NCBI GenBank assembly: GCA_047638715.1
Contig: JBLIMK010000001.1
Coordinates: 32,729 to 96,728, forward strand
Direction: 5' to 3'
Source of the DNA: Verrucomicrobiales bacterium
GTDB taxonomy: Bacteria > Actinomycetota > Acidimicrobiia > Acidimicrobiales > SHLQ01
DNA length: 64,000 nt
Part shown: piece after piece, positions 14,412 to 57,896 of the stretch
Layout of the letters: each line of letters opens with the position of its first letter
Numbering within the stretch: position 1 is the stretch's first letter
Position numbers and translations under genes: made by a program
The notes under the pieces: generated by a model
Database searches by the model: none
Told to the model about the DNA's origin: nothing
The model's input: the letters and a program-made list of their open reading frames with translations, nothing else

Positions 14412-14508
14412 CGTCCTTCTTCAACGTTGGAAGTCGTCTGTTGCCGCTCAATTGTTCAGCTGTGGTTCCGATAGGTCGAAGTACGAAACGACGTCCGTCG
14501 AGGGAACC

Positions 14509-31356: not shown

Positions 31357-31722
31357 TTATTCCACCGGTGTGTCTTGGCTGAACGTGTTGAGCCACTGAT
31401 CGTCGAAACGTTGCCACAGCGAACTGATGTACATCTGCTTCTCGGCGGTGTCTCCAGCAGAAACGAAGGTCGCGAGGTAGGCCAACATGATGGCGTCCTC
31501 TGTGACGTCGAAGGTCCGGGCCTCGTCGATGCTGTAGCTCGCCATCGTCGGTCCATCGGCGAGCTGCTCGGCGTGTTCGTCCCGATCGGCGAAACCCGAT
31601 GGGTAAACCCCGAGGAAGTCGGTGGTGAGCCGGGAGCGATCGGCGGCTCGATCGCCCGCAACGAGCGCATCCCACACCCCGGTCTCGAGACCGACGAAAA
31701 ACTCGACGTCGCGCAACGTCAC
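31357..31722 (-). CDS. NTF2-like/SnoaL-DUF4440-like small protein
   Basis: 121 aa with the size and alternating pattern typical of NTF2-fold proteins. Its GTG start overlaps the fbiC stop (GTGA). Confidence 0.6.
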   Translation of the reverse strand: MTLRDVEFFVGLETGVWDALVAGDRAADRSRLTTDFLGVYPSGFADRDEHAEQLADGPTMASYSIDEARTFDVTEDAIMLAYLATFVSAGDTAEKQMYISSLWQRFDDQWLNTFSQDTPVE

Positions 31723-34091
31723 ACGGTGACTAGTTCGGTTGCGCCGTCATCGAGTCCATCGATGAGGTCATAGCGCGTATTCCGCTGTCGGAGAACCCGT
31801 CCGAGGGGCGCAATTGCTTCGGCGAAGTCGTCGCGGGTGAGGGCGGTGCCATGAGATGCGCCAGCGGCTCGACTGATGTTCTCGTCGATCAGCGTTCCGC
31901 CGAGATCGTTCACGCCAGCGTGCAAGAGCTGCGTGGCGCCCTCGACGCCGATCTTGGGCCACGAGGCTTGGATGTTGTGGATCCAGCCGTGGTACGCAAT
32001 ACGAGCAACGGCATGCATGAGCAGCGTCTCGCGATATGTCGGTCCTCGACGCGATCGGCGCCGCAAATAGATTGGCGAGGCCATGTGCACGAATGGGAGC
32101 GTGACGAACTCGGTGAAGCCGCCGGTCTCCTTTTGTAGGTCGCGTGTCCGCACAATGTGCTTCGCCCAATGGGTTGGATTCTCGACAGCACCAAACATGA
32201 TGGTGACGTTCGAACTCAGCCCGACGCGGTGAGCGAGCCGGTGCGCTTCGAGCCACTCTTCGGTGTTGACTTTGTCCGGGCAGAGGATGGCGCGAACCTC
32301 GTCGTCGAGGATTTCCGCCGCCGTGCCAGGCAAGGACTTCAACCCTGCATCACGCAATCGGGTGAGGTAACTCTCGAGCGGCTCGTTCAGACGTTTCGCT
32401 CCTTCGGTGACCTCGAGCGCTGTGAAACCGTGAATGTGAATATCGGGCGCGGCCTGATGCACGGCATGGATCACGTCGATGTAGTAATCGCCATCAAAGT
32501 CGGGATGGATGCCGCCTTGGAGGCAGACCTCGGTTGCACCCATTTCGGCTGCTTCAACGACTCGTTCCGCCATGTCGTCGAGCGTCAATAGGTAGGGAGC
32601 GCCCCGCAGATTCAGCGAGAGCGGGCCCTTCGAGAAACCACAGAACTGGCACTTGAAGGTGCACACATTGGTGTAGTTGATGTTGCGATTGGCCACATAG
32701 CTGACCACGTCGCCGTTCACAGAAGCGCGAAGTTCATCTGCGAGATTCGCGACGGCCGCGACCTCTGCACCGCGAGCACTGAACAGGTCGGCGATCTGGG
32801 GAACATCGAGCTCCTCACCCGCACGAGCAGCTGCGAGAATTTCCGCGATCTTGCCCCTCGCCGAACCAACGGATGGCAGGAGGGTCATCGGCATGGTGTC
32901 GGCCCCCGAATACCAGGCTGTCGACCGCTCGCCGATGAGCAACACTTCAGCTCCATCGGTGACTTTCGCGTTCTCCATTGTCTTCTCGGGAAACACAGCG
33001 CCCGGGTCGTCTCGGCCCATGCCCTCTGCGTCGGCACGATCCATGATGGGAAAGTGAAGCGCGGTATCGAACCAACGTTCCCGATCTTGCACGAATTCGG
33101 GGTGGGCGGTGAGGCGCGGAGCGAGCACGAATCCGGCGCCGGTTAGGGCCTCAGCAATATCGTCGATCTGCGGCCACGGACGTTCTGGATTGACATGATC
33201 GATGGTCACGGGTGAAATCCCTCCGAGGTCATCGATTCCCGCAGCGACCAAAGAGGCCACGTCTTCGGTGAGGTTCGGTGGAGCTTGAACGTGCACATCG
33301 GCCGGGAGAATTAGTCGAGCGAGCGAGATCGCGTCGAGATGCACATCGGTCGGACACGTTGGATCGCGATGCATCCGAGTGCCGTTCTTCGGGAGGAAGT
33401 TCTGCACGATCACCTCCTGCACGTGACCATGCGCTCGGTGACTGTCGGCGATCGCCTCTAGCGCCGCGATTCGATCGTCGCGGTCTTCGCCGATGCCCAC
33501 GAGGATCCCCGTTGTGAACGGGATGGCGAGTTTGCCGGCAGCATCGAGGGTTTCGAGACGCCGAGCTGGCACCTTGTCGGGTGAGCCGGTATGGCATTCG
33601 AGGTCATCGCGCAGGCTTTCGATCATCATGCCTTGCGACGGCGAGACCTCTCGGAGCATGGCGAGCTCATCTGCGTAGAGAGCGCCAGCGTTTGCGTGGG
33701 GGAGTAGCCCGGTTTCTGTCAGGACCAGTTCCGCAGCGGCCCGCAGATATTCGATCGTGCTGGCGAACCCGTTTTCATCAAGCCACTCACGCGCCGCTGG
33801 GTAGCGGAGCTCAGGGCGCTCGCCCAGGGTGAAGAGGGCTTCGTGGCAGCCAACCCGGGCGCCCTTCTTGGCGATCTTTAGGACCTCCGAGAGCGGCATA
33901 TATGGCGCCTCGACGCGCGCCGGAGGTTCGGCGAATGTGCAGTATCCGCAGCGGTCTTGGCAGAGCTTCGTCAGCGGTATGAAAACCTTCGGTGAGTAGG
34001 TGATGCGCGTGCCCGTCTGGGCGTCGCGGATATCCCTCGCACGAGCCGCGAGTTCCTCGCCGATGGGGTAGAGGGCAGGGTTTGTTGTCAT
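31719..34091 (-). CDS. fbiC: Bifunctional FO synthase (CofG/CofH fusion), F420 chromophore biosynthesis
   Basis: Two radical-SAM CxxxCxxC motifs (CQDRCGYCTF and CTFKCQFCGF). About 790 aa from the ATG at 34091 (MTTNPALYPIG). The longer ORF-track N-terminus overlaps the hxlR gene. Confidence 0.92.
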   Translation of the reverse strand: MTTNPALYPIGEELAARARDIRDAQTGTRITYSPKVFIPLTKLCQDRCGYCTFAEPPARVEAPYMPLSEVLKIAKKGARVGCHEALFTLGERPELRYPAAREWLDENGFASTIEYLRAAAELVLTETGLLPHANAGALYADELAMLREVSPSQGMMIESLRDDLECHTGSPDKVPARRLETLDAAGKLAIPFTTGILVGIGEDRDDRIAALEAIADSHRAHGHVQEVIVQNFLPKNGTRMHRDPTCPTDVHLDAISLARLILPADVHVQAPPNLTEDVASLVAAGIDDLGGISPVTIDHVNPERPWPQIDDIAEALTGAGFVLAPRLTAHPEFVQDRERWFDTALHFPIMDRADAEGMGRDDPGAVFPEKTMENAKVTDGAEVLLIGERSTAWYSGADTMPMTLLPSVGSARGKIAEILAAARAGEELDVPQIADLFSARGAEVAAVANLADELRASVNGDVVSYVANRNINYTNVCTFKCQFCGFSKGPLSLNLRGAPYLLTLDDMAERVVEAAEMGATEVCLQGGIHPDFDGDYYIDVIHAVHQAAPDIHIHGFTALEVTEGAKRLNEPLESYLTRLRDAGLKSLPGTAAEILDDEVRAILCPDKVNTEEWLEAHRLAHRVGLSSNVTIMFGAVENPTHWAKHIVRTRDLQKETGGFTEFVTLPFVHMASPIYLRRRSRRGPTYRETLLMHAVARIAYHGWIHNIQASWPKIGVEGATQLLHAGVNDLGGTLIDENISRAAGASHGTALTRDDFAEAIAPLGRVLRQRNTRYDLIDGLDDGATELVTV

Positions 34092-34555
34092 GCGGACTCC
34101 AATTGAGAATCTGTATTGCTTCGATTGCGGCGAATGGCCGTGGCGTCCACGACCTCGCCACATTTGGTGCAGTGGGTGATGTTTTCGATCGGCGCGCCAC
34201 AATCGCCGTGGAGGAGGGTTACCGGTGCCTCACCATCGTTTCGGTGCCGATCACCCCATTGCATCAGCGAGATGAGCACGGCGGAGAGGTCTCGGCCTGC
34301 GTTGGTAAGCCGATATTCGAATCGCACGGGCCGGTCCTGATATTCGACCTTTTCGAGCACGCCCTGGTCGACGAGGCGGCCTAGCCGGGTCGCGAGCAGG
34401 TTCGATGCGATTCCGAGTTCATTGAGTAGGTCGCTAAAGCGGTACGTGCCGCGGAAGACGCCCCGTAGCACGAGGAGCGACCAGCGGTCGCCGATGACAT
34501 CGAGCGCGGCTGAGATTGAGTCGCCATCGTCTTGAATCGGCATTGCGGATCCCAC
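34088..34555 (-). CDS. HxlR-family winged-helix transcriptional regulator
   Basis: Motifs ALDVIGDRWSLLVLRGVFRGTYRFSDLLNELGIASNLLATRLGRLVDQGVLEKVEY. Its stop overlaps the fbiC start (ATGA). Confidence 0.85.
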   Translation of the reverse strand: MGSAMPIQDDGDSISAALDVIGDRWSLLVLRGVFRGTYRFSDLLNELGIASNLLATRLGRLVDQGVLEKVEYQDRPVRFEYRLTNAGRDLSAVLISLMQWGDRHRNDGEAPVTLLHGDCGAPIENITHCTKCGEVVDATAIRRNRSNTDSQLESA

Positions 34556-43859: not shown

Positions 43860-45296
43860 ATGGCGCCTATGCTGTCGCCGATGCGACGCTGGATCCTGCC
43901 CCTCGTTCTGCTCATCATCGCAGCTTCCGCCGCGTGGCAGGCCGTCGAGACCGATTCGGCTCTCGCTGAAGACGCCCTTTCACAAGAGGGCGTATCTGCT
44001 CCACCGCTGCGTACCCCGTTGATGTCCGTGCGTCGTACGCCCGAGTTCTTACGCGAGCCCATCCTGATCAGGAACTTACAAGAGTCGTTGACCGAGGTCG
44101 CCGACTCGTTCCACGAGCAGAGCTGTCTTGTGGTGTACCACGAGGGCGTGGAGATCTTCGCGTGGAATCCAACGCGTCCTCTCGTTCCCGCATCGGCACA
44201 GAAGCTCCTCACGGCCTACGGGGTGTACGAAGTCCTGGGCCCAGACCACACCTACGAAACCCGTATCGTGACCGACGCTCCACTCGAGGATGGCATTCTC
44301 GACGGCGATCTGTATCTCATCGGTGGTGGCGACCCGCTGCTCGCAACTTCGGCGTACACCGACCGGTATGAACCGCTGCCGCATGTTCGCACCAACATCG
44401 AAGAACTCGCCGACGCTGTCGTGGCGGCTGGTATTACCGAGATCAGCGGTGCGGTTATCGGCGATGAGACCCGCTTCGATGTCGAGCGATACGTGCCCGA
44501 GTGGCCCGAGCGCTTCACGAATGCGTCGCAGAACCAAACCGGTCCATTGTCGGCGCTCACTATCAACGATGGTTTCGTACGCTTCGATCCGAATCCGGCT
44601 CCTTCACTCGCTACAGCCTCCACCGACCCGGCCACGTTCGCAGCGGCGTTCTTCGACGATCTTCTGGAAGATCGCGAAGTAATCATCCGCCAATCCGCAA
44701 CTGCCGGAGAGGCTCCCCTCGCAGCCCGCACGATCGCGTCGATCACATCGGAACCGGTCACGACCGTGACCAACCAGATGCTCAGCCTCAGCGACAACAT
44801 GGCAGCGGAGCTTCTCCTGAAGGAAATCGGCGTCGCGACGTCGGGCCAGGGTACGACCGACGACGGGGCCCGCTCGATCGAAAACGCCCTTCGCTCCGCC
44901 GGATTTTCGGTGTCGGAGACCGACATGGTCGATGGCTCGGGTCTCGCGTCGGAAAATCGAGTCACGTGCCGCCTCCTCGTCGAGGTTCTCGAGGCTTCCA
45001 ACAACACGCCACTCCTCGATGGTCTCGCTGTAACGGGCGAGTCCGGAACCTTGCTCGAGCGCATGGTCGGCACGGATGCTGAGGGCAAGATCCGTGCAAA
45101 GACAGGCCGCCTCAACGAGGTAGGCGCGCTCGCTGGAACAGCGGAGGCTGCGGACGGATCGACCCTCACGTTCGCATGGATAGAGAACACGACCGACCTC
45201 TACCCGCTCGAAGAAATGACAGAAACCCAGGATGCGATCGCTCTTGAACTCGTGGCATTCCCCGAGGGACCGAACGTTGATGCGCTAGGGCCGTGA
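43860..45296 (+). CDS. dacB: D-alanyl-D-alanine carboxypeptidase/endopeptidase (PBP4, S13 family)
   Basis: Signal peptide MRRWILPLVLLIIAASAAWQA plus SxxK (SAQK), SxN (SDN) and KTG (KTGRL) motifs. Confidence 0.85.
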   Translation: MAPMLSPMRRWILPLVLLIIAASAAWQAVETDSALAEDALSQEGVSAPPLRTPLMSVRRTPEFLREPILIRNLQESLTEVADSFHEQSCLVVYHEGVEIFAWNPTRPLVPASAQKLLTAYGVYEVLGPDHTYETRIVTDAPLEDGILDGDLYLIGGGDPLLATSAYTDRYEPLPHVRTNIEELADAVVAAGITEISGAVIGDETRFDVERYVPEWPERFTNASQNQTGPLSALTINDGFVRFDPNPAPSLATASTDPATFAAAFFDDLLEDREVIIRQSATAGEAPLAARTIASITSEPVTTVTNQMLSLSDNMAAELLLKEIGVATSGQGTTDDGARSIENALRSAGFSVSETDMVDGSGLASENRVTCRLLVEVLEASNNTPLLDGLAVTGESGTLLERMVGTDAEGKIRAKTGRLNEVGALAGTAEAADGSTLTFAWIENTTDLYPLEEMTETQDAIALELVAFPEGPNVDALGP

Positions 45297-45943
45297 TCGA
45301 CGACACAGCTTCGAAACCTGAGGGGGTGGCCAGCGCATACGAACTCGCCATGTTCCCGTTGGGTTCCACGATCTTTCCCGGGCAGGTTGTGCCGCTTCAC
45401 ATCTTCGAAGATCGTTATCGCACTCTTATCAGCCAACTGACCACCGGTAATGTGGAGGCGACGTTCGGCATCGTGCTGATCGACCGCGGACATGAGGTCG
45501 GCGGTGACGACCATCGAGTGTCGGTGGCCACCCGTGTGGAGATATTGCAGGCCGAAGAGTTCGACGATGGCCGGTGGGGCGTCGTAACAGCCGGCCTTGA
45601 ACGCCTCGATATCCTCGGCTGGCTCGACGACGACCCCTATCCACGCGCGATGGTCCTGCCCCGAGCCGTCGTCGACAACGGGGGAGCGTCACTCGACGAC
45701 CTCGAGGGGCTTCTGGTGGAAACCATCGACCTCGCAGCAAAGGCGGCCAGCGTCGACGTCCCGGGCCCATTCGACTTCAATGCCGATCCTCACCAACGTC
45801 TCGATCAATTATCTGCGCTCGCGCCACTTACGGCATTCGATCGCCAACGCATTCTGGAAGCGGCTACCACCGCAGACCAGATCGCGATATTGCAAGATGC
45901 ACTACGCGAAAAGGCGATGCTGTTGCGCTCCGAGCTGCGGTAG
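45293..45943 (+). CDS. LON substrate-binding (N-terminal) domain-only protein
   Basis: Motif MFPLGSTIFPGQVVPLHIFEDRYRTLI is typical of LON_substr_bdg. There is no AAA+ or protease domain. The GTG start overlaps the dacB stop (GTGA). Confidence 0.8.
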   Translation: MIDDTASKPEGVASAYELAMFPLGSTIFPGQVVPLHIFEDRYRTLISQLTTGNVEATFGIVLIDRGHEVGGDDHRVSVATRVEILQAEEFDDGRWGVVTAGLERLDILGWLDDDPYPRAMVLPRAVVDNGGASLDDLEGLLVETIDLAAKAASVDVPGPFDFNADPHQRLDQLSALAPLTAFDRQRILEAATTADQIAILQDALREKAMLLRSELR

Positions 45944-45983
45944 GTTGAAGGCCAGAGCGGACTTTCTAGACCGAAGGACTTTT

Positions 45984-46307
45984 GTGGCAGAGACCCCCAA
46001 GACCCCGACCGAAAATGTGCAAGAGGTCTTCGACCTCGTAAAGGCGTACGCGGTGCAGGAGACCGCGACACCACTTAAAGGTGTTGGCCGCTACCTCAAG
46101 TTTGGTTTGCCGGGCGCGATCTGCCTTGGTGTTGGCTTCTTCTTCCTGGCGCTCGCGGCCCTTCGAGGGCTCCAGGAGGTCGACGTGTTCAGTGAGGATG
46201 TAGGCAACTTCGGATACAACTGGGCGCCGTACTTCATTGTTTTTTCAGGCGCCGCGCTCATCCTTGGATTTCTTGCTAGCCGCATTACGAAAGGTCTTGG
46301 CGAATGA
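45984..46307 (+). CDS. Small two-TM membrane protein (actinobacterial holin-X-like topology)
   Basis: In-frame GTG at 45984. An amphipathic N-terminus is followed by two hydrophobic segments (LPGAICLGVGFFFLALAAL and YFIVFSGAALILGFLA). Confidence 0.55.
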   Translation: MAETPKTPTENVQEVFDLVKAYAVQETATPLKGVGRYLKFGLPGAICLGVGFFFLALAALRGLQEVDVFSEDVGNFGYNWAPYFIVFSGAALILGFLASRITKGLGE

Positions 46308-46516
46308 GTACAGAACAAGCTCCAATCTCGAAGGACGATCTGGAGGCGAAGTTCCGCCAGATAAAGACCGAGGTCGACAATGTCACCGAAGGTGCCAAGA
46401 GCAAGGCCGTACCTGCGATCGCGGTTGGCGGCATCCTCTTCATTCTTCTCATGTATCTGCTCGGCAAGCGCGTTGGCAGCAAACGGTCATCCGTTGTCGA
46501 GATCCGTCGGCTCTGA
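46304..46516 (+). CDS. Small single-TM hypothetical protein
   Basis: 70 aa. ATGA overlap with the upstream gene. C-terminal TM segment AIAVGGILFILLMYLL. Confidence 0.5.
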   Translation: MSTEQAPISKDDLEAKFRQIKTEVDNVTEGAKSKAVPAIAVGGILFILLMYLLGKRVGSKRSSVVEIRRL

Positions 46517-46528
46517 TCCACTGAGCTG

Positions 46529-47023
46529 ATGTTCCCGACCCGCAAGAAGAAGAGTTATATAAAACGAACCCTGCGCATGAACGCGGTCCGGAAGGGCCTT
46601 CTCGGCGGATCGCTCTTCTGGCGCGTCGTGTGGGTGTCGCAGCTGTTCTTGAAGGGCTGGAGCAAGGCCAGTAAACGTGGCGAGGCGCCGATCTTGTTTA
46701 GCGAGCCGTTGAAAGAGGGCGATGCGTGGACGATCGTTCACGAACCAGAACGGTCGCGGCGCGGTCGGGGTGAAGGGCGCAAGATGCTCGTCGGGCCCAA
46801 GCGTAAGGCGCCGCGAGCCGGCGTCATGTCTGGATCAGCGCTTGGATGGGTGGGCCAACGAATTCTCGACGCTCCCTCTGCCGAACGGATCAATCAAATC
46901 CTCGGGGTAGACGTGGTCACCGAGCCTCCTCCAACGAGGAAGGCGATCCGTGCAGCGAAGAAGGACGCAAAGAAAGCCGCGAACGCAGCGGGCAAGCTCG
47001 TGAAGGCCGAGGCCACGCGCTGA
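46529..47023 (+). CDS. Hypothetical protein with a Lys/Ala-rich C-terminal tail
   Basis: 164 aa with coding-like codon bias. The tail reads [29 protein letters not shown]. Its stop overlaps the start of the ThiS-like gene (TGATG). No family recognised. Confidence 0.5.
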
Positions 47024-47217
47024 TGCGAGTCCGGCTTCGCAACCCGGATCGTGACGTCGAGATCGAGGGCCCGATCACCATCTCGCGGCTCGTCGAGAAA
47101 CTCGAGCTCAACCGCGAGTCGATTCTCGTCATCGTCAACGGCACGCTTCTCGCAGGAAATACCAAGCTTCGAGCCGACGATGACATCGAAATCCGTAGTG
47201 TGATCTCGGGAGGCTGA
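47023..47217 (+). CDS. ttuB: ThiS/MoaD/TtuB-like ubiquitin-fold sulfur-carrier protein (C-terminal Gly-Gly)
   Basis: 64 aa ending IRSVISGG immediately before the stop. Size and hydrophobic pattern fit a beta-grasp fold. It lies directly upstream of a TtuA-type thiolase. Confidence 0.7.
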
Positions 47218-47219
47218 GC

Positions 47220-48224
47220 ATGAAGTGTCGTGTCTGCGAGGGTCCACAGGTCATAGAACTTCGCCAGCACAACGCGGCGTTCTGCGCCGAACATTTCATT
47301 GCGTTCTGCCGCCGTCAGGTGCAAAAGACGATCGACAAGTTCAAGATGTTTGAAGCTGACGATCGCGTACTCGTGGCGGTTTCGGGGGGCAAGGACTCAC
47401 TGGCATTGTGGGACATTCTTGTTGAACTGGGTTATGACGCCGATGGTTTGGTCATTGGCCTTGGCATAGGCGAGTACAGCGAGAACAGCTCCGAATTTGC
47501 CCGAGCGTTTGCCGCCGAACGCGGGCTGAAGCTGCACGAATACGACCTCCAGACCGAACATGGCTTCACCGTTCCAGCGGCCGCTGCCGCAACGAAGCGC
47601 GTTCCGTGCTCATCCTGCGGGTTGAGCAAGCGCCACATTTTCGACGACGTAGCTGTTCGTCACGACTACGACGTCGTAGTGACCGGCCACAATCTTGACG
47701 ATGAAGCCGCCGTCCTTTTCGGCAATGTCGCCCGTTGGCAAGCCGAATATCTCGGCCGACAACACCCTGTCTTGCCGGCTGTGAACGGGTTTCCCCGCAA
47801 GACAAAGCCCCTCATTCGGTTGACCGAAAGAGAGATGGCGGCCTACTGCATCCTTCGCAATATCGACTACGTCGTCGAGGAATGCCCGATGGCGGCGGGA
47901 AACAAACATCTTCACTACAAGGACCTCCTCAACCAGATGGAAGTTGCATCTCCTGGTTCAAAGCAGGCCTTCTACTTCGGATTTCTTGAACGCGGAGCGG
48001 AGCGGTTTGCTCGCCCACTCGATTCGTCAATCGATGACGAGGTCGACGGTATGAGACCTGCGGGCGTGCCCGCCGTGTCGCCGTGCCTGGTGTGCGGGAG
48101 CCCATCGAGCAACGAGGTTTGCGCATTCTGCCGCCTGGTCGATCTCGCCGCGCCAAACAGCGTTATAACCGACGAGACGGTATCGGTGGAAATCACCGCG
48201 CGTGCCGACAAGCTTGCGCAATGA
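47220..48224 (+). CDS. ttuA: TtuA/Ncs6-type tRNA 2-thiolation PP-loop ATPase
   Basis: PP-loop VAVSGGKDSLAL. N-terminal CRVC...CAEH, central PCSSCG plus EECP, and C-terminal CLVC...CAFC cysteine clusters match the TtuA architecture. Confidence 0.8.
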   Translation: MKCRVCEGPQVIELRQHNAAFCAEHFIAFCRRQVQKTIDKFKMFEADDRVLVAVSGGKDSLALWDILVELGYDADGLVIGLGIGEYSENSSEFARAFAAERGLKLHEYDLQTEHGFTVPAAAAATKRVPCSSCGLSKRHIFDDVAVRHDYDVVVTGHNLDDEAAVLFGNVARWQAEYLGRQHPVLPAVNGFPRKTKPLIRLTEREMAAYCILRNIDYVVEECPMAAGNKHLHYKDLLNQMEVASPGSKQAFYFGFLERGAERFARPLDSSIDDEVDGMRPAGVPAVSPCLVCGSPSSNEVCAFCRLVDLAAPNSVITDETVSVEITARADKLAQ

Positions 48225-49096
48225 TCATGACCGAATCGGCGCTCGCCGGCGTCCTACAAGAGGGCGAAATCATCCAGTTCGTCGACATCAAGGACCGACG
48301 TTATTCGGTGACCCTGGAGTCCGGGAAAGAGTTCCACTCCCACGCCGGGCTCATCAAGCACGATGATGTGATTGGTCGAGCCGAAGGTCGCTATCTGAAG
48401 TCGACCCGCGGCGGAAGTTACCTCGTGATCCGTCCTACGCTCGCCGAACTCATCTTGAAGATGCCACGTGGCGCGCAGGTCATCTATCCCAAGGACCTCG
48501 GTCCGCTTCTCATGATCGCTGACATCTTTCCAGGAGCCCGAGTGTTCGAGAGCGGCGTTGGTTCCGGAGCTCTGTCGATGACAATGCTGCGCGCCGGGGC
48601 GCACATCACCGGCTACGAACTTCGTGAAGACTTCGCCCAGCGTGCGCAGAAGAATGTCAGCGAGATTCTCGGACCTGACGTGCTTGATCGATATGACGTG
48701 CAGCTACGAAACGCGTACGACGGCATCGACGAGAAGGCATTTGATCGAGTGGTTCTCGATCTTCCGGAGCCATGGCAGGTGATTCCCCATGCGGCCGAGG
48801 CAATGCGCACCGGTGGAGTTTTTGTTGCCTACACGCCGAGTGTGATGCAGGTGAGCAAGGTACGCGAAACACTGAAGATGAACGGCTTCGGCATGGCCGA
48901 AACTACCGAATTCCTCCAACGCGGTTGGCATGTCGAAGGACAGGCGGTTCGCCCCGACCACCGAATGGTTGGACACACGGGCTTTCTCACGTCTGCCCGG
49001 CTACTCGAAGGCACGCCTCCGCCTTCTCGCAGTGAAAAGGTCGCTAAGGCGATCGTCGCCAAGGCAAGAGAAGACGCCGCGCCTACACCTCGATGA
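48221..49096 (+). CDS. trmI: tRNA (adenine58-N1)-methyltransferase
   Basis: SAM motif VFESGVGSGALS, motif LDLPEPW, and about 291 aa. It occupies the same position upstream of arc/mpa as the mycobacterial Rv2118c. ATGA overlap with ttuA. Confidence 0.88.
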   Translation: MIMTESALAGVLQEGEIIQFVDIKDRRYSVTLESGKEFHSHAGLIKHDDVIGRAEGRYLKSTRGGSYLVIRPTLAELILKMPRGAQVIYPKDLGPLLMIADIFPGARVFESGVGSGALSMTMLRAGAHITGYELREDFAQRAQKNVSEILGPDVLDRYDVQLRNAYDGIDEKAFDRVVLDLPEPWQVIPHAAEAMRTGGVFVAYTPSVMQVSKVRETLKMNGFGMAETTEFLQRGWHVEGQAVRPDHRMVGHTGFLTSARLLEGTPPPSRSEKVAKAIVAKAREDAAPTPR

Positions 49097-49319
49097 AGAT
49101 GCACTCCCCGGGACATTCTTCGGCGGATTCGACGACGCCGTCTTCTTTGCCGCTCGGCACAGGTACGAGCCCCTGAACACCGCCAGGTTCGCTCATGATG
49201 CTGGCGCCATCTTTGACGTATGCGAGCCCATCGTCGAGCAGAGCGAAGACGTCGGGGGCGATCTCGACGCAAATTCCGTCGCCAGTGCACAAATCCTGAT
49301 CGATCCAGACCTTCATCAT
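49083..49319 (-). CDS. Small single-cluster ferredoxin
   Basis: Sequence [22 protein letters not shown]...CPGECIFIE follows the CxxxxxC...CP pattern of actinobacterial 3Fe-4S/4Fe-4S ferredoxins. SD GAAAGGA lies upstream. The longer ORF-track call is a low-complexity extension. Confidence 0.75.
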
Positions 49320-49354: not shown

Positions 49355-49482
49355 ACGCCGCAGAGTGTAGCGATCTCCCTGCCGTCTCAATCCGTGGGAA
49401 TCTGTTGCGGAGAAACCTGTCGGTTGGTCCCTGGGAATGGCCGGGGTGTACGACTAGGTTCTCGTCGAGGGAGGCAACCACC

Positions 49483-51237
49483 GTGAGCGAAGATTCCGAA
49501 CGTCGCCAGATCGAAGCGGATTTGGCCGACGAACGTCGCCAGATCGCCGTGCTGACCGAAGAGGTAGAGGCCCTGCGAAACCGGCTCGACGAAGCACCGC
49601 GACGCGTTCTCGCCCTCGAGGAACGTTTGCTGGAAACCAAGGGACAACTCGCGCAAGCTGTGGCCCGAAATGAAAAGCTCACATACACGTTGCGCGAGGC
49701 GCGCGACAGTATTGCCACGCTGCGCGAAGAGGTCGACAAACTCACCCAAGCGCCTGCCAGTTACGGAACCTTCCTTGGGCTGAACGATGACGATGGAAGC
49801 GCCGATGTATACGCGGGCGGCCGCAAAGTACGCGTGGCCGTCAATCCTGAGCTGGACGAGCTTCTCGAGGTCGGCCAAGAGGTCGTGCTCAACGACAGCT
49901 TGAACATCATCAAAGCGCGAGGTCTCGAGACGACTGGCGAGATCGCGAGTGTTAGAGAACTTCTGGGCGACGGTCGGGCAATGATCACCGGAAGGGCCGA
50001 CGAAGAGCGGGTCGTCGAAATCTGCGAAGGACTCCGTGGCAAGGCGTTGAAGGCGGGCGATTCTGTACTGATCGACCCTCGTTCGAACATGATCCTTGAG
50101 AAACTGCCCCGCCCAGGCGTTGAAGATCTGGTTCTTGAGGAGGTTCCCGATGTCTGCTATGCCGACATTGGTGGTCTCGATGAACAGATCGAACAGATCA
50201 CGGACGCGATCGAGCTACCTTTTGTTCACTCCGAACTGTTCACCGAGTTCGAACTGCCGTCGCCGAAAGGCATCTTGCTCTACGGGCCCCCTGGCTGCGG
50301 CAAGACGCTCATTGCGAAGGCCGTCGCAAACTCGCTCGCGAAACGCGTCGCCGAAGTCACCGGCGATGAGACAGCAAAGTCCTTCTTCATCAATATCAAG
50401 GGCCCGGAGCTCTTGAACAAGTACGTAGGTGAAACGGAGCGTCAGATCCGCCTCGTGTTCCAACGCGCTCGCGAGAAGGCCTCGGAGGGTTGGCCAGTAA
50501 TCGTCTTCTTCGACGAAATGGAGTCGTTGTTTCGAACGCGCGGCTCAGGCATTAGCTCCGACATTGAGTCGACGATCGTGCCACAACTTCTGGCCGAGAT
50601 CGATGGAGTAGAAACCCTCCGCAACGTTGTCGTCATCGGCGCATCGAACCGCGAAGATCTGATCGATCCAGCGATCCTGCGACCCGGCCGTCTCGACGTC
50701 AAGATCAGAATCGATCGACCCGACGAACTCTCCGCAGCAGCGATCTTCCGTCAGTACTTGACACCTGAGCTACCAATCGATCAGACGCTCATCGAGACGA
50801 CGGGCGGGGGCGATCGCAACAAAGCGGTCGCAGCCATGGTCGATGCGGCTGTCTCAGAGATGTACCGCACCGACGAGCAGAACGAGTTCCTCGAAGTCAC
50901 CTACCAGAACGGTGACAAAGAGGTCATGTATTTCAAAGACTTCTCATCGGGTGCAATGATCGAGAACGTCGTTCGGCGCGCAAAACAATTGGCGATCAAG
51001 CGCATCATCAACGGGGGAGCGCGCGGTATCCGATCTGAGGACCTCGTTGCAGCAACGAAGAGGGAGTTCCGGGAGCACGAAGATCTTCCGAACACCACCA
51101 ACCCTGACGATTGGGCCAAAATCTCGGGCAAGAAGGGCGAACGCATCGTCTACATTCGAACGCTCGTTGGCACCACCGCAGAATCGTCCAGCGGCGGTCG
51201 CGAAGTGCAACGAGTCGGAACGGGGCAGTACCTGTAA
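49483..51237 (+). CDS. arc: Proteasome-associated AAA+ ATPase (ARC/Mpa)
   Basis: N-terminal coiled coil, Walker A GPPGCGKT, Walker B VIVFFDEM, and the C-terminal GQYL docking motif. GTG at 49483 is preceded by GAGGGAGG. Confidence 0.95.
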
Positions 51238-52737
51238 ATGGTTGTCCCAAAGACACTTGGCGTCGAGACCGAGTATGGAATTGTCCTGCGCGGAACGGAC
51301 GAACCAAACCCGATCTCGGCATCGTCACTACTCATCAACGCATACCTCGCCGTGCGCGAACCACTCAGCCAGCCCCGCGTCTCGTGGGATTTCGAAGATG
51401 AGACTCCGGCTCGAGATGCCCGCGGCGAAACACCGCTGCATTCGCTTGCACCCGAGATCGAAACACACCTCGTCAACGCCGTGCTCACGAACGGATCGCG
51501 CTACTACGTCGATCACGCACATCCCGAATACGCAACGCCTGAATGTGCCGACGCGCGCTCGATCGTCGTGCACGATCGCGCAGGTGAGGAAATTCTGATC
51601 CAGTCGATGGCGGCCGCATCGACGCTGCTGGCCGATCACCAAGAAATCGTGGTCTACAAGAACAACAGCGACGGCAAGGGCAACTCCTACGGCTGTCACG
51701 AGAACTATCTGATGGATCGAGCAACGCCGTTCGGTCAGATCGTGAAACACGGCATTGCGCACCTCATTACCCGGCAAATCTTCACCGGTGCGGGCAAGGT
51801 GGGTACGGAGCTGCCCGGCTTGAATCGAAATGAGGTCACGTTCCAACTGACCCAACGGGCCGACTTCTTCGAAGAACAGGTCGGTCTCGAGACGACGCTG
51901 AAGCGACCGATCATCAACACTCGCGACGAGCCCCATGCCGATGCCCGCAAATACCGACGGCTGCACGTCATTGCCGGCGATGCAAACATGAGCGAGGTCG
52001 CGACCTACCTCAAGGTAGGTACCACGGCCATAGTCCTCGCCATGGTGGAACACGAAGCGATCAGCCGAACGTTTTCGTTCGCTGATCCAGTTCGCGCAAT
52101 GCAACAGATCAGCTACGACCTCGACCTAACCGAGCCACTCGACCTCGACGATGGCACCCGGATCCGAGCGATCGACGTTCAGCGCTCGCTGTTCGCTGAC
52201 GCACAACGATTCATCGAGAAACACGGCACTGAGTCCGTCGGCGGCGATGTTGCGCTCGACGTCATGACGCGCTGGGGCTCAACCCTCGACACGCTCGCAC
52301 GCGATCCTCTCGAACTCGCGTCGACGATCGACTGGGTAGCAAAATATCGCCTTCTCGAGGCCTATCGCGAACGGCACGGCATCGAATGGGATGACGCCCG
52401 CCTCGCAGCGATGGACATCCAATACCACGATATGCGCCCTGGTCGGTCGCTGGCACGGAAACTCGGGCTCGAGGTGCTGGTATCGCCTGCAGAGGTATTC
52501 GCTGCTACCTCCAATCCCCCCGAAGACACACGCGCTTACTTTCGAGGCGAATGCCTCCGCAAATGGGGCGAGTACATCGTTGCCGCAAATTGGGATTCGC
52601 TTGTTTTCGACGTCGGCGTGGAACCACTTCGACGAATCCCGATGATGGAGCCGACGCGAGGTACTCGCAACCACGTCGGTACGGTGTTAGAAGAGTGCGA
52701 TACACCGTTGGAATTGCTTGAACGCCTTCGTGGCTGA
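51238..52737 (+). CDS. dop: Pup deamidase/depupylase
   Basis: N-terminal GVETEYG and the carboxylate-amine ligase fold. At 499 aa it is longer than the PafA paralog. It sits immediately upstream of pup. Confidence 0.92.
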   Translation: MVVPKTLGVETEYGIVLRGTDEPNPISASSLLINAYLAVREPLSQPRVSWDFEDETPARDARGETPLHSLAPEIETHLVNAVLTNGSRYYVDHAHPEYATPECADARSIVVHDRAGEEILIQSMAAASTLLADHQEIVVYKNNSDGKGNSYGCHENYLMDRATPFGQIVKHGIAHLITRQIFTGAGKVGTELPGLNRNEVTFQLTQRADFFEEQVGLETTLKRPIINTRDEPHADARKYRRLHVIAGDANMSEVATYLKVGTTAIVLAMVEHEAISRTFSFADPVRAMQQISYDLDLTEPLDLDDGTRIRAIDVQRSLFADAQRFIEKHGTESVGGDVALDVMTRWGSTLDTLARDPLELASTIDWVAKYRLLEAYRERHGIEWDDARLAAMDIQYHDMRPGRSLARKLGLEVLVSPAEVFAATSNPPEDTRAYFRGECLRKWGEYIVAANWDSLVFDVGVEPLRRIPMMEPTRGTRNHVGTVLEECDTPLELLERLRG

Positions 52738-52772
52738 GTCTGCACAACGCTACGAATAGTCAGGAGATCGCT

Positions 52773-52967
52773 ATGGCTGAACGCGAACAGATCAAGAGAA
52801 CAGGGCAGAACACCGAGGCCGAAGAGGTCGAGGAGCTCCCGGCTGCGTCGGAATCGGGCGAGAAGTTGAAGGCCGACATGGACGACCTTCTCGACGAGAT
52901 CGATGAAGTGCTCGAGACGAACGCTGAGGACTTTGTAAAAAGCTATATCCAAAAGGGTGGGCAGTGA
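52773..52967 (+). CDS. pup: Prokaryotic ubiquitin-like protein Pup
   Basis: 64 aa, acidic. The Mpa-binding helix LLDEIDEVLETNAEDFVKSYIQKGGQ ends in GGQ. Confidence 0.93.
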   Translation: MAEREQIKRTGQNTEAEEVEELPAASESGEKLKADMDDLLDEIDEVLETNAEDFVKSYIQKGGQ

Positions 52968-53767
52968 CTCTTCCGTACTTTGTCCCCGGAGACGACCCCG
53001 GTCCCGACTTCGCACGATTGGTCCGCAGACAGGGAACGGAACCATTCCCTCCTGCACATGGCGCTTCGAGCAGCGATATCACACACGGCACAACCTGCGT
53101 GGCCGTGCGATACGCCGACGGCGTGGTTATGGCTGGCGATCGGCGGGCGACATCAGGCAACCTGATCTCGCATCGTTCGATTGAGAAGGTCTTTGCTGCC
53201 GACCGGCACAGTGCAGTAGCGATCGCTGGTGCTGCTGGCCCCGCTATCGAGATGGTCCGGTTGTTTCAGCTTCAGCTCGAACATTACGAAAAAGTCGAGG
53301 GCTCACCTCTCAGCCTCGAAGGTAAAGCAAACCAACTCGGCCAAATGATTCGATCGAACCTGCCCGCTGCAATGTCGGGCCTGGCAGTCGTGCCGATCTT
53401 TGCTGGGTATGACCTCGCACGAGAGACGGGTCGCCTGTTCGAGTACGACATCACCGGTGGGCGCTACGAAGAGTCCGACTATGCAGCTACCGGATCGGGT
53501 TCTCTTCACGCCGAGACCGTAATCAAGGTCGGCTATAGCCGTGACATGTCTGGCGACCAGGCAGTCACGCTGCTTGCTGAAGCCTTGTTCCAGGCCGCCG
53601 ATGCAGATTCTGCGACAGGTGGGGCCGACACGTTGCGAGGCATATTCCCAATCGTGGCGACTATGAGCGAAGAGGGTTTCGCCCGTGTCGAAGATGCGGT
53701 GGTTGGAACGAAATTCGCCGAGATCGCTGAACGTTTCGCGGCGAACCACCGTGAGGTACAACCATGA
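52964..53767 (+). CDS. prcB: 20S proteasome beta subunit
   Basis: A propeptide is followed by the HG|TTCVAVRY catalytic Thr context. ATGA-type overlap with pup. Confidence 0.93.
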   Translation: MTLPYFVPGDDPGPDFARLVRRQGTEPFPPAHGASSSDITHGTTCVAVRYADGVVMAGDRRATSGNLISHRSIEKVFAADRHSAVAIAGAAGPAIEMVRLFQLQLEHYEKVEGSPLSLEGKANQLGQMIRSNLPAAMSGLAVVPIFAGYDLARETGRLFEYDITGGRYEESDYAATGSGSLHAETVIKVGYSRDMSGDQAVTLLAEALFQAADADSATGGADTLRGIFPIVATMSEEGFARVEDAVVGTKFAEIAERFAANHREVQP

Positions 53768-54435
53768 CCACGCCGTTCTACGTCGCCCCCGAACAGATGA
53801 TGAAGGATCGGGCGGACTACGCACGCAAAGGTATTGCCCGCGGGCGCAGCCTCATTGCGATGGCGTACGAACACGGCATCTTTATCTGTGCCGAGAATCC
53901 TTCGTCGACATTGCACAAGGTTTCGGAGATCTACGACCGGATCGCCTTTGCCGGTGTGGGCAAGTACAACGAATTCGATCAGCTTCGAATCGCTGGAATT
54001 CGTCACGCTGACCTCAAGGGATTCACCTACAGCCGCGAAGACGTCGAAGCGCGCAGCCTTGCGAACAACTACGCACAGATGCTCGGTCAGACGTTCACAC
54101 ACGAGATGAAGCCGATGGAGGTCGAGATTCTCGTGGCTGAGATCAGCGACACTCCTGGCGAGGAGCAGTTGTTCCACATCTTGTACGACGGGACGGTCAT
54201 GGATGAGGGCGACTTCGTTGTGCTCGGAGGCGACTCTGACGCGATCAGCGAGCGAGTTGCAGGAGCCTATTCGCTTGGGTTGAGCGCTTCGGCGGCGCTG
54301 GAGGTTGCGCGCTCTGCGCTGGCCGGCGAGGATCGCACGCTCAGCGACGGTGACCTCGAGGTAGCGATGCTCGACCGTACGCTCGGTAGACGCACGTTCC
54401 GACACATCCAAGAGGATCAGCTCGCATCGTTGTAA
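53764..54435 (+). CDS. prcA: 20S proteasome alpha subunit
   Basis: N-terminus MTTPFYVAPEQMMKDRADYARKGIARGRS is typical of bacterial PrcA. Overlaps the prcB stop. Confidence 0.93.
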   Translation: MTTPFYVAPEQMMKDRADYARKGIARGRSLIAMAYEHGIFICAENPSSTLHKVSEIYDRIAFAGVGKYNEFDQLRIAGIRHADLKGFTYSREDVEARSLANNYAQMLGQTFTHEMKPMEVEILVAEISDTPGEEQLFHILYDGTVMDEGDFVVLGGDSDAISERVAGAYSLGLSASAALEVARSALAGEDRTLSDGDLEVAMLDRTLGRRTFRHIQEDQLASL

Positions 54436-54570
54436 CCAACAAACACGGGAAACCCCAGCATGCTTCGTATGTCCAAGCTCCCTGATTCAGACCGTGCCGC
54501 GGCTGAAGAACTAGGGAGCGCGGCCGCCTAACCCACCCTGCGGTGTCGTCGTCCTAGTACGCTAAGGGCA

Positions 54571-55929
54571 ATGCAGCGACGCATCTTTGGACTCGAAAAC
54601 GAATACGGCGTCACCTGCACACTCGAGGGACAACGACGATTGTCCCCAGATGAGGTTGCTCGTTATCTGTTCCGCCGCGTGGTCTCTTGGGGTCGCAGCA
54701 GCAACGTCTTCCTCGCAAACGGTGCTCGCTTGTACCTCGACGTAGGTTCGCATCCCGAGTACGCCACACCTGAGTGCGACAACGTCTACGACGTCGTTGT
54801 CCACGACAAAGCCGGCGAACGAATTCTCGAGCAACTGCTGATCGGAGCGCAGCAACGTCTCACCGAAGAGGGGATTCGTGGCGATATCTATCTCTTCAAA
54901 AACAACACGGACTCCGCCGGCAACTCCTACGGCTGCCACGAGAATTATCTCACGAGCCGCAAGGACGACATCGGGTCGTACTCCGAAGTCCTTATTCCTT
55001 TCCTCGTGAGCCGGCAGATCTATGCGGGTGCAGGCAAGGTCCTGCAGACCGCGCGAGGCGCCATGTACTGCGTCAGCCAGCGTGCCGAACACATTTGGGA
55101 AGGCGTGTCGAGCGCGACGACGCGCTCCCGTCCAATCATCAACACGCGAGACGAGCCACATGCCGACGCCGAGAAGTATCGCCGCCTTCATGTAATCGTG
55201 GGCGACTCGAACATGAGCGAATACACGTCATTCCTGAAGGTTGGCGCTGCCTCGCTCATGTTGCGGATGCTCGAAGAGCCCAATGTCATGGTTCGAGACA
55301 TGACGCTCGAGAACCCGATACGCGCGATTCGCGAAATCAGCCACGACCCGACCTGCACGAGGCGAGTTCGGCTAGCCAACGGTCGAGAAGCGTCAGCGCT
55401 CGAGATCCAAAGCGAGTACCTCGAACGTGCACTGCGATTCGCCGACTTTCATGAGCTGGATCCACTCGAAAAGCAGGCGTTGCAGATGTGGGAGCACTGT
55501 CTCACCACCATTGCAGATGACCCAATGAAACTCGATCGCGAAATTGACTGGGTCATCAAGTACAAACTCCTCGAGGCGTACCGGGAACGGCACGACCTCT
55601 CACTCGCCGATCCTCGCGTTGCGCTCATCGACCTGCAGTACCACGACATTCACCGCCAGCGAAGCCTCTTCTATCGAATGCAGAGGCGTGGGCTCGTCGA
55701 ACGCATCTGTGACGATCAAGACATCGCCACCGCTGTCGAGACACCACCACAAACAACTCGTGCCCGTCTTCGAGGCGAGTTCATTCGTCGTGCCAAGGAG
55801 CGCCGTCGCGACTTCACTGTCGATTGGGTTCATCTCAAGCTGAATGATCAGGCACAGCGGACCGTTCTGTGCAAGGACCCCTTTCGCAGCCAAGACGAGC
55901 GGGTTGACAAGCTCATTGCTTCGCTGTGA
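54571..55929 (+). CDS. pafA: Pup-protein ligase
   Basis: N-terminus [13 protein letters not shown]. 452 aa and a paralog of Dop (shared YGCHENYL and [11 protein letters not shown]). Confidence 0.93.
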
Positions 55930-56031
55930 TCTCCCGCGGGTTCAGATCCGTCGCCTAGTGGCTCCTCGATCGAACAGCGGAACGCAGGCGTAGCCCGGCT
56001 TCGCACGGGTCCTTCCAGATAGAGTCAGCAG

Positions 56032-56958
56032 GTGTCGAAGCTCGAGCGTCTTTTGAAGCTGCTGGCCGTGTTACTGGACACGACCCTTCCGTTGTCCGCC
56101 GAGGATCTCCGCCGACGGATCGGCGGCTACCCCGACGGCGATGCAACGTTTCGTCGAACGTTCGAACGAGACAAGGACGACCTGCGATCGATGGGTGTGG
56201 CGATTCGCGTCGCGTCGGTTCCTGGCACCGAGCCGCCCCTCGACGGCTACATCGTCGACCAGGACGTCTACGCCGGGCAGGATCCTGGACTTGAACCTGA
56301 CGAGCTTGCGGCCTTGCACCTGGCTGCAGCGCTTATGCGGGTCGGTGAACTCGGAGACGATGCGTTCTGGAAGTTGGGTGGTTCCGGCGAAACAGACCCC
56401 GCCCGAGAGCCCACATCGATCGGTGCTGTCGCTCCGAGCGATGACGCAGGGCTGATGCACACGGCCATATCCGAGCGACGGGTAGCGACATTCCGTTATC
56501 GCGATACCGACCGCGAACTCGAACCCGCACGCATCAGCTTCACACGAGGTCAGTGGTACGTCTCAGGACACGACAGGGCGCGAGATGCCGAACGGGTCTT
56601 TCGAATCGACCGGATCGATGGATCCGTGGAACTCGGTCAGCCCAACGCGTTCGAACGGCGACCAGCCCGAGGTCCCGAGGTAACACGAACCTGGGAGCTC
56701 GGTGACGAAGAACCGATCGCCGCTTCGGTTCGCATCGACGCAGAAGTTGCTCTATGGGCTCGCGTCCACCTGCGACCCGATGAGATTGAGCCTCAGGCCG
56801 ATGGCTCGGTCCTCGTGAATATGTCGGTCCGAAACACCGATGCCTTCCGAGATTGGGTCTTGAGCTTTCTCGACAACGCTGAGGTGGTCACTCCAGAAGT
56901 GTTCCGCACGGTAATCACGGATTGGCTTCTACTGGTTCGAGAGGGCGTGGAGGCATGA
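56032..56958 (+). CDS. pafB: PafB, HTH-WYL transcriptional regulator subunit
   Basis: N-terminal wHTH (SKLERLLKLLAVLL...SAEDL), a central WYL-like segment (FRYRDTDRELEPARISFTRGQWYVSGHD) and position after pafA. Confidence 0.85.
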   Translation: MSKLERLLKLLAVLLDTTLPLSAEDLRRRIGGYPDGDATFRRTFERDKDDLRSMGVAIRVASVPGTEPPLDGYIVDQDVYAGQDPGLEPDELAALHLAAALMRVGELGDDAFWKLGGSGETDPAREPTSIGAVAPSDDAGLMHTAISERRVATFRYRDTDRELEPARISFTRGQWYVSGHDRARDAERVFRIDRIDGSVELGQPNAFERRPARGPEVTRTWELGDEEPIAASVRIDAEVALWARVHLRPDEIEPQADGSVLVNMSVRNTDAFRDWVLSFLDNAEVVTPEVFRTVITDWLLLVREGVEA

Positions 56959-57896
56959 AGATCGCAGCGAAGGATCGTATGGCTCGACTGATCGCGGCGA
57001 TTCCATGGATCGTCGCCCAAGATGGCGCATCGGTGAACGAAATTTCCGAGCGTTTCGACTATCCACGCGAGCTGTTGCTCGCAGATCTCCAAGACGTGGT
57101 CTTTTACGTCGGAGTACCTCCGTACACACCCGACACGCTTATCGAGGTCGTCATCGAGGACGACATGGTGTGGATCAGGTATGCGGACTGGTTCTCGAGG
57201 CCGATGCGATTGTCCGGCTCGGAGATCCTCGCGCTTCTCGCGGCAGGGGAGACGGCGCTTGCATTCGATAATCAGGATGAAGCTGGTGCCCTAGCTCGGG
57301 GTTTGACGAAATTGCGCCTCGCCACCGGGAGCGGCGACGATGTTGTTGATGTGCAACTCGGTGTTGCAGCGGAGACCACGTTGCCGGTGCTGCGTGCCGC
57401 GGCCGATTCACAGCGGTGTGTGGATATCTCGTACTACTCGTTCTCGAGCGATGAACGTACGGATCGACGCATCGAACCGAGTCGGTTTTTTATGGACGAC
57501 GGAAATTGGTATGTGGGTGGGCACTGCCACCGCGCCAACGCTGAACGGGTGTTTCGTGTGGACCGTATCGAACAAATCGTCGAGACGGAGGAAACATTCT
57601 CCGCCACAGCGAGCCGGGAGGCAGGAGCCCCCCTGTTCTCAATCGATGAAGCTCCTCAGGCCACCCTGTCGTTGCCCGCTGCGCGCTCGAGGCTTTTGGA
57701 CGGTGTCCCGATCGAGTCTCGTAAGGATTCCGAGAATGACATCGTCGTGCGGTTACCAATCTCGTCGAGTCGTTGGCTCGGACAGCTGATGATTCGAATC
57801 GGTCCCGGCGGGCGACTGGTCGAGGTTCCTGATGAGGTGGCGATCGACCTCGCATCGGCGACGGAAAAGATCCTCGCTCGTTACGGCGTCTCGTGA
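56955..57896 (+). CDS. pafC: PafC, HTH-WYL transcriptional regulator subunit
   Basis: ATGA overlap with pafB. Motifs MARLIAAIPWIV...SVNEISERF and a WYL-like segment (ISYYSFSSDERTDRRIEPSRFFMDDGNWYVGGH). Confidence 0.85.
   Translation: MKIAAKDRMARLIAAIPWIVAQDGASVNEISERFDYPRELLLADLQDVVFYVGVPPYTPDTLIEVVIEDDMVWIRYADWFSRPMRLSGSEILALLAAGETALAFDNQDEAGALARGLTKLRLATGSGDDVVDVQLGVAAETTLPVLRAAADSQRCVDISYYSFSSDERTDRRIEPSRFFMDDGNWYVGGHCHRANAERVFRVDRIEQIVETEETFSATASREAGAPLFSIDEAPQATLSLPAARSRLLDGVPIESRKDSENDIVVRLPISSSRWLGQLMIRIGPGGRLVEVPDEVAIDLASATEKILARYGVS

Follow-up and report, generated by a model that had tools for sequence, protein, structure and literature searches.

Whether 2-thiolation of position 54 in the T-loop of transfer RNA (tRNA) serves only as an adaptation to heat is the question raised by a three-gene cassette, ttuB-ttuA-trmI, that lies in a 64,000-nucleotide (nt) stretch of bacterial DNA (assembly GCA_047638715.1, contig JBLIMK010000001.1, positions 32,729-96,728, forward strand; hereafter the window, to which all coordinates refer unless another locus is named). 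The modified nucleoside, 5-methyl-2-thiouridine at position 54 (m5s2U54, or 2-thioribothymidine, s2T54), is described in a 2018 review as a typical thermophile-specific nucleoside of Thermus, Aquifex, Thermotoga, Pyrococcus, and Thermococcus (PMC6313347), and a compendium of July 2026 still treats it as typical of thermophilic bacteria (PMC13602947). Both present it as stiffening the tRNA elbow, and both bear out the statement, made in an earlier sequence-only reading of this DNA, that s2T54 is regarded as a thermophile trait. The three genes described here probably form one T-loop-modifying operon that uses a pathway of the Thermus thermophilus type, as judged from sequence comparisons, and the product would be s2T54, or 2-thiouridine (s2U54) if position 54 carries no 5-methyluridine (m5U54). 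The system itself is thus a known one, found in an unexpected and mostly mesophilic lineage, the actinobacterial class Acidimicrobiia. Both the distribution among mesophiles and the operon with trmI appear to be undocumented so far in the literature searched, in which no paper on TtuA in Acidimicrobiia was found.

The central gene, ttuA (47220-48224, plus strand, with its ATG at 47220 and its stop at 48222-48224), encodes a protein of 334 amino acids (aa) that the sequence-only reading had named TtuA, of the TtuA/Ncs6 type and not TtcA or TilS. Profile scores and the ranking of structural matches both agree with that proposal. In Pfam, the protein matches the PP-loop family PF01171 (37.9 bits against a cut-off of 27) and TtuA_LIM_N (37.1 bits, cut-off 27), and among the NCBIfam models it scores 264.7 bits for TtuA, 99.9 for NcsA, 66.5 for TtcA, and 44.4 for TilS (N-terminal domain). 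The best match in the PDB is Thermus TtuA (5gha_A; also 5B4E), with an expect value (E) of 4.8e-83 and 282.5 bits over residues 1-309; the two proteins are 50% identical and align without insertions or deletions over the first ~250 residues, so that residue numbering is identical there. Pyrococcus horikoshii TtuA (3VRH, 5MKO), which has the same domain layout and whose type defines the best-scoring NCBIfam model (NF049949), ranks second and is more distant from the window protein (228 bits versus 282 for Thermus), with NcsA of M. maripaludis far behind at 82.8 bits. Assignment as a TtuA-type [4Fe-4S] tRNA 2-sulfurtransferase is therefore supported by sequence evidence of several kinds, although this family assignment is not new, because automated annotation already calls some of these metagenome proteins tRNA-5-methyluridine54 2-sulfurtransferase.

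Residue-level comparison of the window protein with Thermus TtuA and 80 relatives (82 sequences in all) shows how tightly the functional architecture is constrained. About this protein the sequence-only reading had claimed a PP-loop together with the cysteine layout of TtuA/Ncs6, and every one of these motifs was located: the PP-loop SGGKDS at residues 55-60, an N-terminal CxxC...CxxH zinc finger (C3, C6, C22, H25), a C-terminal CxxC...CxxC zinc finger (C289, C292, C301, C304) on the other side of the catalytic domain, and the predicted cluster ligands C130 and C133 (in a CSSC motif) and C222, which align with C130, C133, and C222 of Thermus. All of these are invariant in the 82 sequences, as are S55, D59, K137, and D161, and 100 columns of the alignment are invariant or nearly so. 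The CxxC...C cysteines of TtuA hold a [4Fe-4S] cluster that leaves one iron free (PMC7025502, PMC7138817), and mutagenesis of the Thermus enzyme has found Ser55, Asp59, Lys137, and Asp161 to be essential, with Lys137 needed specifically to mobilise sulfur from the TtuB thiocarboxylate (TtuB-COSH) and dispensable when sulfide is supplied (PMC7138817). Compared with the Thermus TtuA-TtuB structures (5GHA, 5ZTB, 5B4E), the window enzyme thus keeps the PP-loop, the cluster cysteines, Lys137, Asp161, and both zinc fingers; it differs by 15 residues inserted ahead of the second zinc finger and by a C-terminal tail of 25 residues.

Directly upstream, ttuB occupies 47023-47217 on the plus strand (coding 47023-47214, stop TGA at 47215-47217) and encodes a protein of 64 aa. 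The sequence-only reading had noted that this open reading frame (ORF) ends in VISGG right before its stop, as it does (...EIRSVISGG, then TGA), and had taken its product for a beta-grasp sulfur carrier, a view that now has both profile and fold comparisons behind it. The protein scores 30.3 bits on Pfam ThiS (PF02597; cut-off 22.5), and its best PDB sequence match, over its full length, is Thermus thermophilus TtuB (5ztb_E, E 6e-6); the equivalog cut-offs of the NCBIfam ThiS and SAMP2 models are not reached. A single-sequence AlphaFold2 model (mean predicted local distance difference test score, pLDDT, 66) has the beta-beta-alpha-beta-beta-beta order of a beta-grasp fold, and Foldseek places Thermus TtuB first among its structural neighbours (template-modelling score, TM, 0.77), with ubiquitin, SUMO, and NEDD8 next. 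These comparisons of sequence and model support identification of the protein as a TtuB-type, ubiquitin-fold (ThiS/MoaD-type) sulfur carrier. It belongs to the same length class as Thermus TtuB and, like it, ends in ISGG and is encoded immediately ahead of ttuA; nothing follows its Gly-Gly, which is thus available as a free carboxy terminus.

The third gene, trmI (48221-49096, plus strand, 291 aa), had been named in the sequence-only reading as encoding the methyltransferase that makes N1-methyladenosine at position 58 (m1A58), and the family matches uphold this identity. Its product matches Pfam GCD14 (PF08704, E 1.7e-25, 90.6 bits) and TrmI-like_N (PF14801, E 1.3e-17, 63.9 bits); its closest relative of solved structure is the characterised TrmI of M. 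tuberculosis (Rv2118c, 1I9G; PDB match 1i9g, E 3.5e-62), with archaeal TrmI, Thermus TrmI, and human TRMT61A among the further PDB matches. Sequence evidence thus supports a tRNA (adenine58-N1) methyltransferase. In Thermus, trmI is not known to adjoin ttuB-ttuA, so that the operon with ttuA sets the window apart from that system, as does its largely mesophilic host lineage. The association nevertheless has a biochemical counterpart there, as m1A58 acts in Thermus as a positive determinant for the thiolation of position 54 (PMC6418473, PMC6313347). The operon provides independent genomic support for this link, which has so far rested on Thermus biochemistry.

How closely the genes are joined can be read from their junctions, which are as the sequence-only reading had described them: ttuA begins 2 nt after the ttuB stop (GC at 47218-47219, then the ATG at 47220), and the trmI start codon (48221-48223) overlaps the ttuA stop (48222-48224) in an ATGA at 48221-48224. 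Start/stop overlaps are frequent among same-strand neighbours in the window, and the ttuA/trmI overlap alone is therefore not unusual; it is the persistence of the junctions across the class, described below, rather than the overlap itself, that argues for a stable, co-expressed unit. The sequence GGAGG at 47209-47213 (plus strand), formed by the ttuB glycine codons GGA GGC, sits 6 nt ahead of the ttuA ATG and is likely to act as a Shine-Dalgarno site for ttuA in this genome. A general role of the Gly-Gly codons as the ttuA Shine-Dalgarno site was considered and dropped, GGAGG being present at these codons in just 12 of 80 relatives. Upstream, the TGA (47021-47023) of an ORF of 164 aa (46529-47023, plus strand) shares one base with the ttuB ATG (TGATG), and this ORF may be the first gene of the transcription unit. 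It was recognised from the ORF list and the sequence, encodes a basic protein, has a third-position guanine-plus-cytosine (GC) content of 0.73, was recovered by tblastn in 27 of 80 related loci, and gave no family match in the Pfam and NCBIfam profile scans. Downstream, the unit ends at a convergent gene (49083-49319, minus strand) for a single-cluster 4Fe-4S ferredoxin of 78 aa (Pfam Fer4_15, E 2e-16), whose 3' end overlaps that of trmI by 14 nt. A ferredoxin gene is also present in 55 of 80 related loci, on the opposite strand in 53 of those.

Scans for regulatory signals added little to this picture. Between 45200 and 49600 no promoter-like site was found and terminator-like sites occurred at the level of shuffled sequence. 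At gathering thresholds, Rfam gave no match anywhere in the window, and thus no riboswitch or leader upstream of the cassette; a tRNA scan of the whole window gave no tRNA gene.

The three genes are conserved well beyond the window. When bacterial genomes were scanned, one for each species, 487 loci that encode a TtuA relative were recovered, and the best 80 of the 487 were examined in detail. All 80 belong to Acidimicrobiia by synteny or by label, and they include the cultured organisms Salinilacustrithrix flava (genome CP133888), Aquihabitans sp. McL0605 (CP188252), and Actinospongicola halichondriae DSM 114536 (CP171622) as well as metagenome-assembled genomes (MAGs) of Iamia and Candidatus Microthrix. 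The order ttuB-ttuA-trmI on one strand is kept in 80/80, with trmI directly behind ttuA in every case, and the surroundings are conserved as well: upstream of the cassette lies a block with a D-Ala-D-Ala carboxypeptidase, a Lon N-domain protein, and small membrane proteins, and downstream lie ARC, Dop, Pup, and PrcB. In 71 of the 80 loci the sequence allows ttuA and trmI to overlap in frame at an NTGA start/stop, and in 59 ttuB and ttuA share 4 nt at their stop/start junction. When the window genes are compared with those of ten relatives, non-synonymous differences amount to 0.08-0.30 per site and synonymous differences to 0.5-0.78, which is near saturation; on these sequence comparisons, ttuB, ttuA, and trmI are under purifying selection.

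A further feature of the class concerns the end of the sulfur carrier. VISGG is invariant in the 80 related TtuB ORFs, but only 7 of these stop directly at GG as the window protein does; the other 73 run on for 1-31 non-conserved residues, most often two (39 loci), such as AA, AR, or AT. In the crystal structure from Thermus, the free carboxylate of the TtuB C-terminal Gly-Gly coordinates the free iron of the TtuA cluster (PMC7138817). Because this contact requires a free Gly-Gly carboxylate, the tailed proteins must, by analogy, be trimmed, or they would be unable to serve as sulfur donors. Precursors of this kind have precedent: in quinolobactin synthesis, the sulfur carrier QbsE has residues past its Gly-Gly that are trimmed by the JAMM peptidase QbsD. 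The 73 tailed relatives and the TtuB-like ORFs of two other lineages resemble that type in having residues after Gly-Gly; they differ from it in that no JAMM gene lies near any locus, and the window protein differs in ending exactly at GG. Regular-expression searches of the window and the 80 loci for the JAMM motif (HxH...SxxD) and the rhodanese motif (CRxGxR) returned only matches scattered over spurious ORFs of high GC, none of them a consistent neighbour, and the JAMM search yielded no candidate for a trimming peptidase near the related loci.

The cassette is not confined to Acidimicrobiia. When 1.84 billion cluster representatives were searched exhaustively, 399 TtuA matches came back at E <= 1e-30, and ten representatives at ~46-62% identity were looked up for their origin, the named ones being Myxococcales/Polyangiaceae, Acetomicrobium, and Desulfotomaculales. 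In two Polyangiaceae MAGs (L081 and L082; 3711-5777 in those loci), a TtuB-like ORF ending AVISGG-AG lies upstream of ttuA, overlaps it by 4 nt, and is followed by an adjacent trmI; in L081 this tailed ORF spans 3711-4004. In another lineage (L085), a TtuB ending AVISGG-RK (2804-3004 in that locus) precedes ttuA and TrmI is not adjacent; Acetomicrobium likewise has a TtuB ending in GG upstream of ttuA with no adjacent TrmI, and three other lineages have neither TtuB upstream of ttuA nor an adjacent TrmI. Joining of ttuA and trmI is thus not universal, yet it is present in two phyla. In both Polyangiaceae loci, genes for a class V aminotransferase (of the cysteine desulfurase type) and an RluA-family pseudouridine synthase lie upstream of the cassette, and a gene for a full-length Lon protease lies downstream.

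The exact TtuA protein is on record from a single contig of 109,938 nt, which bears the NCBI label Verrucomicrobiales, but the close relatives of the window TtuA are all from Acidimicrobiia, and the whole window, including its Pup-proteasome genes, is syntenic with Acidimicrobiales genomes at protein identities of 60-90%. Because of these relatives and this gene order, the window almost certainly derives from Acidimicrobiales, the label being probably an error of binning or taxonomy; the actinobacterial origin assumed in the sequence-only reading therefore holds despite it. A related locus labelled Acidobacteria (L056) looks like a similar case of mislabelling. Base composition at the cassette is ordinary (GC 0.58-0.60, against 0.58-0.63 elsewhere in the window), and there is thus no sign of recent transfer. 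As for temperature, one of the cultured carriers of the cassette, Actinospongicola halichondriae Hal317 (L064), grows between 5 and 35 °C and best at 30-35 °C, and the related type strains of Iamiaceae are mostly listed between 10 and 45 °C, one of them at 37-55 °C (PMC12263773). The host class is mostly mesophilic, and it also includes moderate thermophiles.

If the Thermus pathway applies, the chemistry would proceed as follows. An E1-like enzyme encoded outside the window would adenylate the C-terminal Gly-Gly of TtuB, and sulfur from a cysteine desulfurase would then turn the adenylated carrier into the thiocarboxylate. TtuA, carrying by homology a [4Fe-4S] cluster on Cys130, Cys133, and Cys222, would bind ATP at its PP-loop (S55-GGKDS) and adenylate the uridine or ribothymidine at position 54 on its C2; the TtuB thiocarboxylate would be captured on the cluster's free iron, and Lys137 would help to release its sulfur, giving 2-thio-(ribo)thymidine 54. 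TrmI would methylate N1 of A58, the pairing partner of position 54, and m1A58 would speed the thiolation, as it does in Thermus. The position of trmI right behind ttuA, with overlapping stop and start, would allow both enzymes to be made together.

Several observations weigh against this pathway. Reports of the modification come from thermophiles and none from mesophiles (PMC6313347), and the literature searched contains no modified-nucleoside data for any member of Acidimicrobiia. Pfam scans of the ~55 ORFs of the window found no E1-like enzyme, cysteine desulfurase, rhodanese, or JAMM peptidase; the sequence-only reading had already remarked on the absence of an E1-like activator, a desulfurase, and a JAMM peptidase. 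The window likewise encodes no m5U54 methyltransferase (TrmFO or TrmA). Co-transcription and translational coupling are read from the gene junctions, and confidence in the single-sequence model of TtuB is moderate. Finally, the 264.7 bits of the window TtuA fall short of the 450-bit equivalog cut-off of the Pyrococcus-type model NF049949. The experimentally characterised Thermus TtuA served as a control: its first 294 residues (of 321) reach 292.9 bits on the same model, with the same profile of weaker hits; since Thermus TtuA itself lies below 450 bits, the cut-off delimits the Pyrococcus subgroup and not TtuA function, and the control takes away most of the weight of the shortfall.

The alternative that survives best, although it too is unlikely, is that this TtuA homologue thiolates a different target, either the wobble position U34, in the manner of NcsA/Ncs6 and in place of or in addition to MnmA, or another RNA. 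TtuA and NcsA/Ncs6 are sister families with a common catalytic core (PMC7025502), and the NcsA/Ncs6 enzymes, which work with SAMP2 or Urm1 (6SCY), share with the window protein a superfamily, the combination of [4Fe-4S] and PP-loop chemistry, and a ubiquitin-fold donor of thiocarboxylate; the window protein also matches the NcsA model itself, at 99.9 bits. These matches are, however, much weaker (83-100 bits) than those to TtuA, whether in NCBIfam (264.7 versus 99.9 bits) or in the PDB (282 versus 83 bits), and the score profile of the window protein is that of genuine Thermus TtuA. Context separates the two families as well: the target of NcsA/Ncs6 is the anticodon (s2U34 in archaea and in the eukaryotic cytosol), whereas ttuA stands here in an operon with the gene for a T-loop enzyme, trmI, in 80/80 loci and in a second phylum.

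A second alternative would keep the target and change the sulfur source, with TtuA using free sulfide on its cluster and TtuB serving another thiocarboxylate pathway or being dispensable. Such a route has been proposed for organisms that have no TtuB, several TtuA homologues of other lineages lack an adjacent TtuB, and the residues past GG in 73/80 relatives would block direct use of the carrier unless it is trimmed. Yet TtuB precedes TtuA in 80/80 loci with its VISGG invariant, it is under purifying selection, and Lys137 is invariant in TtuA although it is needed only with TtuB-COSH and not with sulfide (PMC7138817), all of which makes the sulfide route very unlikely.

Position within the genome suggests a third possibility, in which TtuB is chiefly a ubiquitin-like protein modifier tied to the adjacent Pup-proteasome and its role in tRNA modification is secondary. 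The cassette does lie directly upstream of ARC, Dop, Pup, PrcB, PrcA, PafA, and PafBC, and the Polyangiaceae cassette adjoins a gene for Lon protease. This adjacency is probably a property of trmI, however, since in M. tuberculosis trmI (Rv2118c) lies close to the proteasome ATPase gene mpa (Rv2115c), judging from the gene numbers, and that organism is not known to carry ttuB-ttuA upstream of trmI. Moreover, the Polyangiaceae cassette has no Pup genes beside it, neither an E1 nor a JAMM gene occurs in the window or as a regular neighbour of the related loci, and TtuB is always paired with TtuA in the 80 loci, so that a primary role in protein modification is highly improbable. That the cassette is left over from a thermophilic ancestor and is inactive or irrelevant in the mesophiles of today can be given hardly any credence, for although the class holds moderate thermophiles, including the Iamiaceae type strain listed at 37-55 °C (PMC12263773), and the modification is known only from thermophiles (PMC6313347), no catalytic residue varies among the 82 sequences, purifying selection is strong with synonymous sites saturated, gene order and junctions are kept across 80 loci, and TtuA relatives occur at 487 or more species-level loci.

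With the Thermus-type operon as the preferred reading, the presence of the cassette in mostly mesophilic Acidimicrobiia leads to the prediction of a thiolated T-loop outside the thermophiles. This leaves two outcomes, a role for the modification at moderate and low temperature or another target for the enzyme there; roles that can be envisaged at moderate temperature include tRNA stability, nuclease resistance, and control of T-loop dynamics. A broader proposal, toward which the evidence leans by a little, is that 2-thiolation of position 54 is not an adaptation to heat only but a standing T-loop modification in the mostly mesophilic Acidimicrobiia and at least some Polyangiaceae, that a single ttuB-ttuA-trmI operon ties the order of m1A58 followed by s2T54 to co-expression, and that in most of these organisms TtuB is made as a tailed precursor and trimmed by a peptidase.

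Directly downstream of the cassette lies a complete Pup-proteasome locus (49405-57896), comprising ARC (49405-51237), Dop (51238-52737), Pup, which ends in GGQ (52773-52967), PrcB (52964-53767), PrcA (53764-54435), PafA (54571-55929), and PafB/PafC-like WYL proteins (56032-57896), so that the gene for one ubiquitin-fold carrier, ttuB, is situated within 6 kb of the gene for Pup. Upstream, a chain of small genes (45293-47023) that ends with the 164-aa ORF runs into ttuB through overlaps or short gaps. It begins with a protein that consists only of the Lon substrate-binding domain (45293-45943), whose gene overlaps that of the upstream D-Ala-D-Ala carboxypeptidase by 4 nt, and continues with a weakly Holin-X-like membrane protein (~45984-46307) and a single-helix protein of 70 aa (46304-46516) that is present in 76/80 loci.

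Two features elsewhere in the window may be mentioned. A four-gene set at 14452-18428 resembles a conservon, an actinobacterial G-protein system, and encodes a histidine-kinase-like ATPase (14452-17070), a Roadblock/LC7 protein (17067-17477), a DUF742 protein (17474-17848), and a small GTPase-like ATP_bind_1 protein (17829-18428). At 31719-34202, on the minus strand, a protein of 827 aa combines two radical-SAM stretches with a CofH C-terminal region and looks, from its sequence, like a fused CofG/CofH, the FO synthase of coenzyme F420 biosynthesis.

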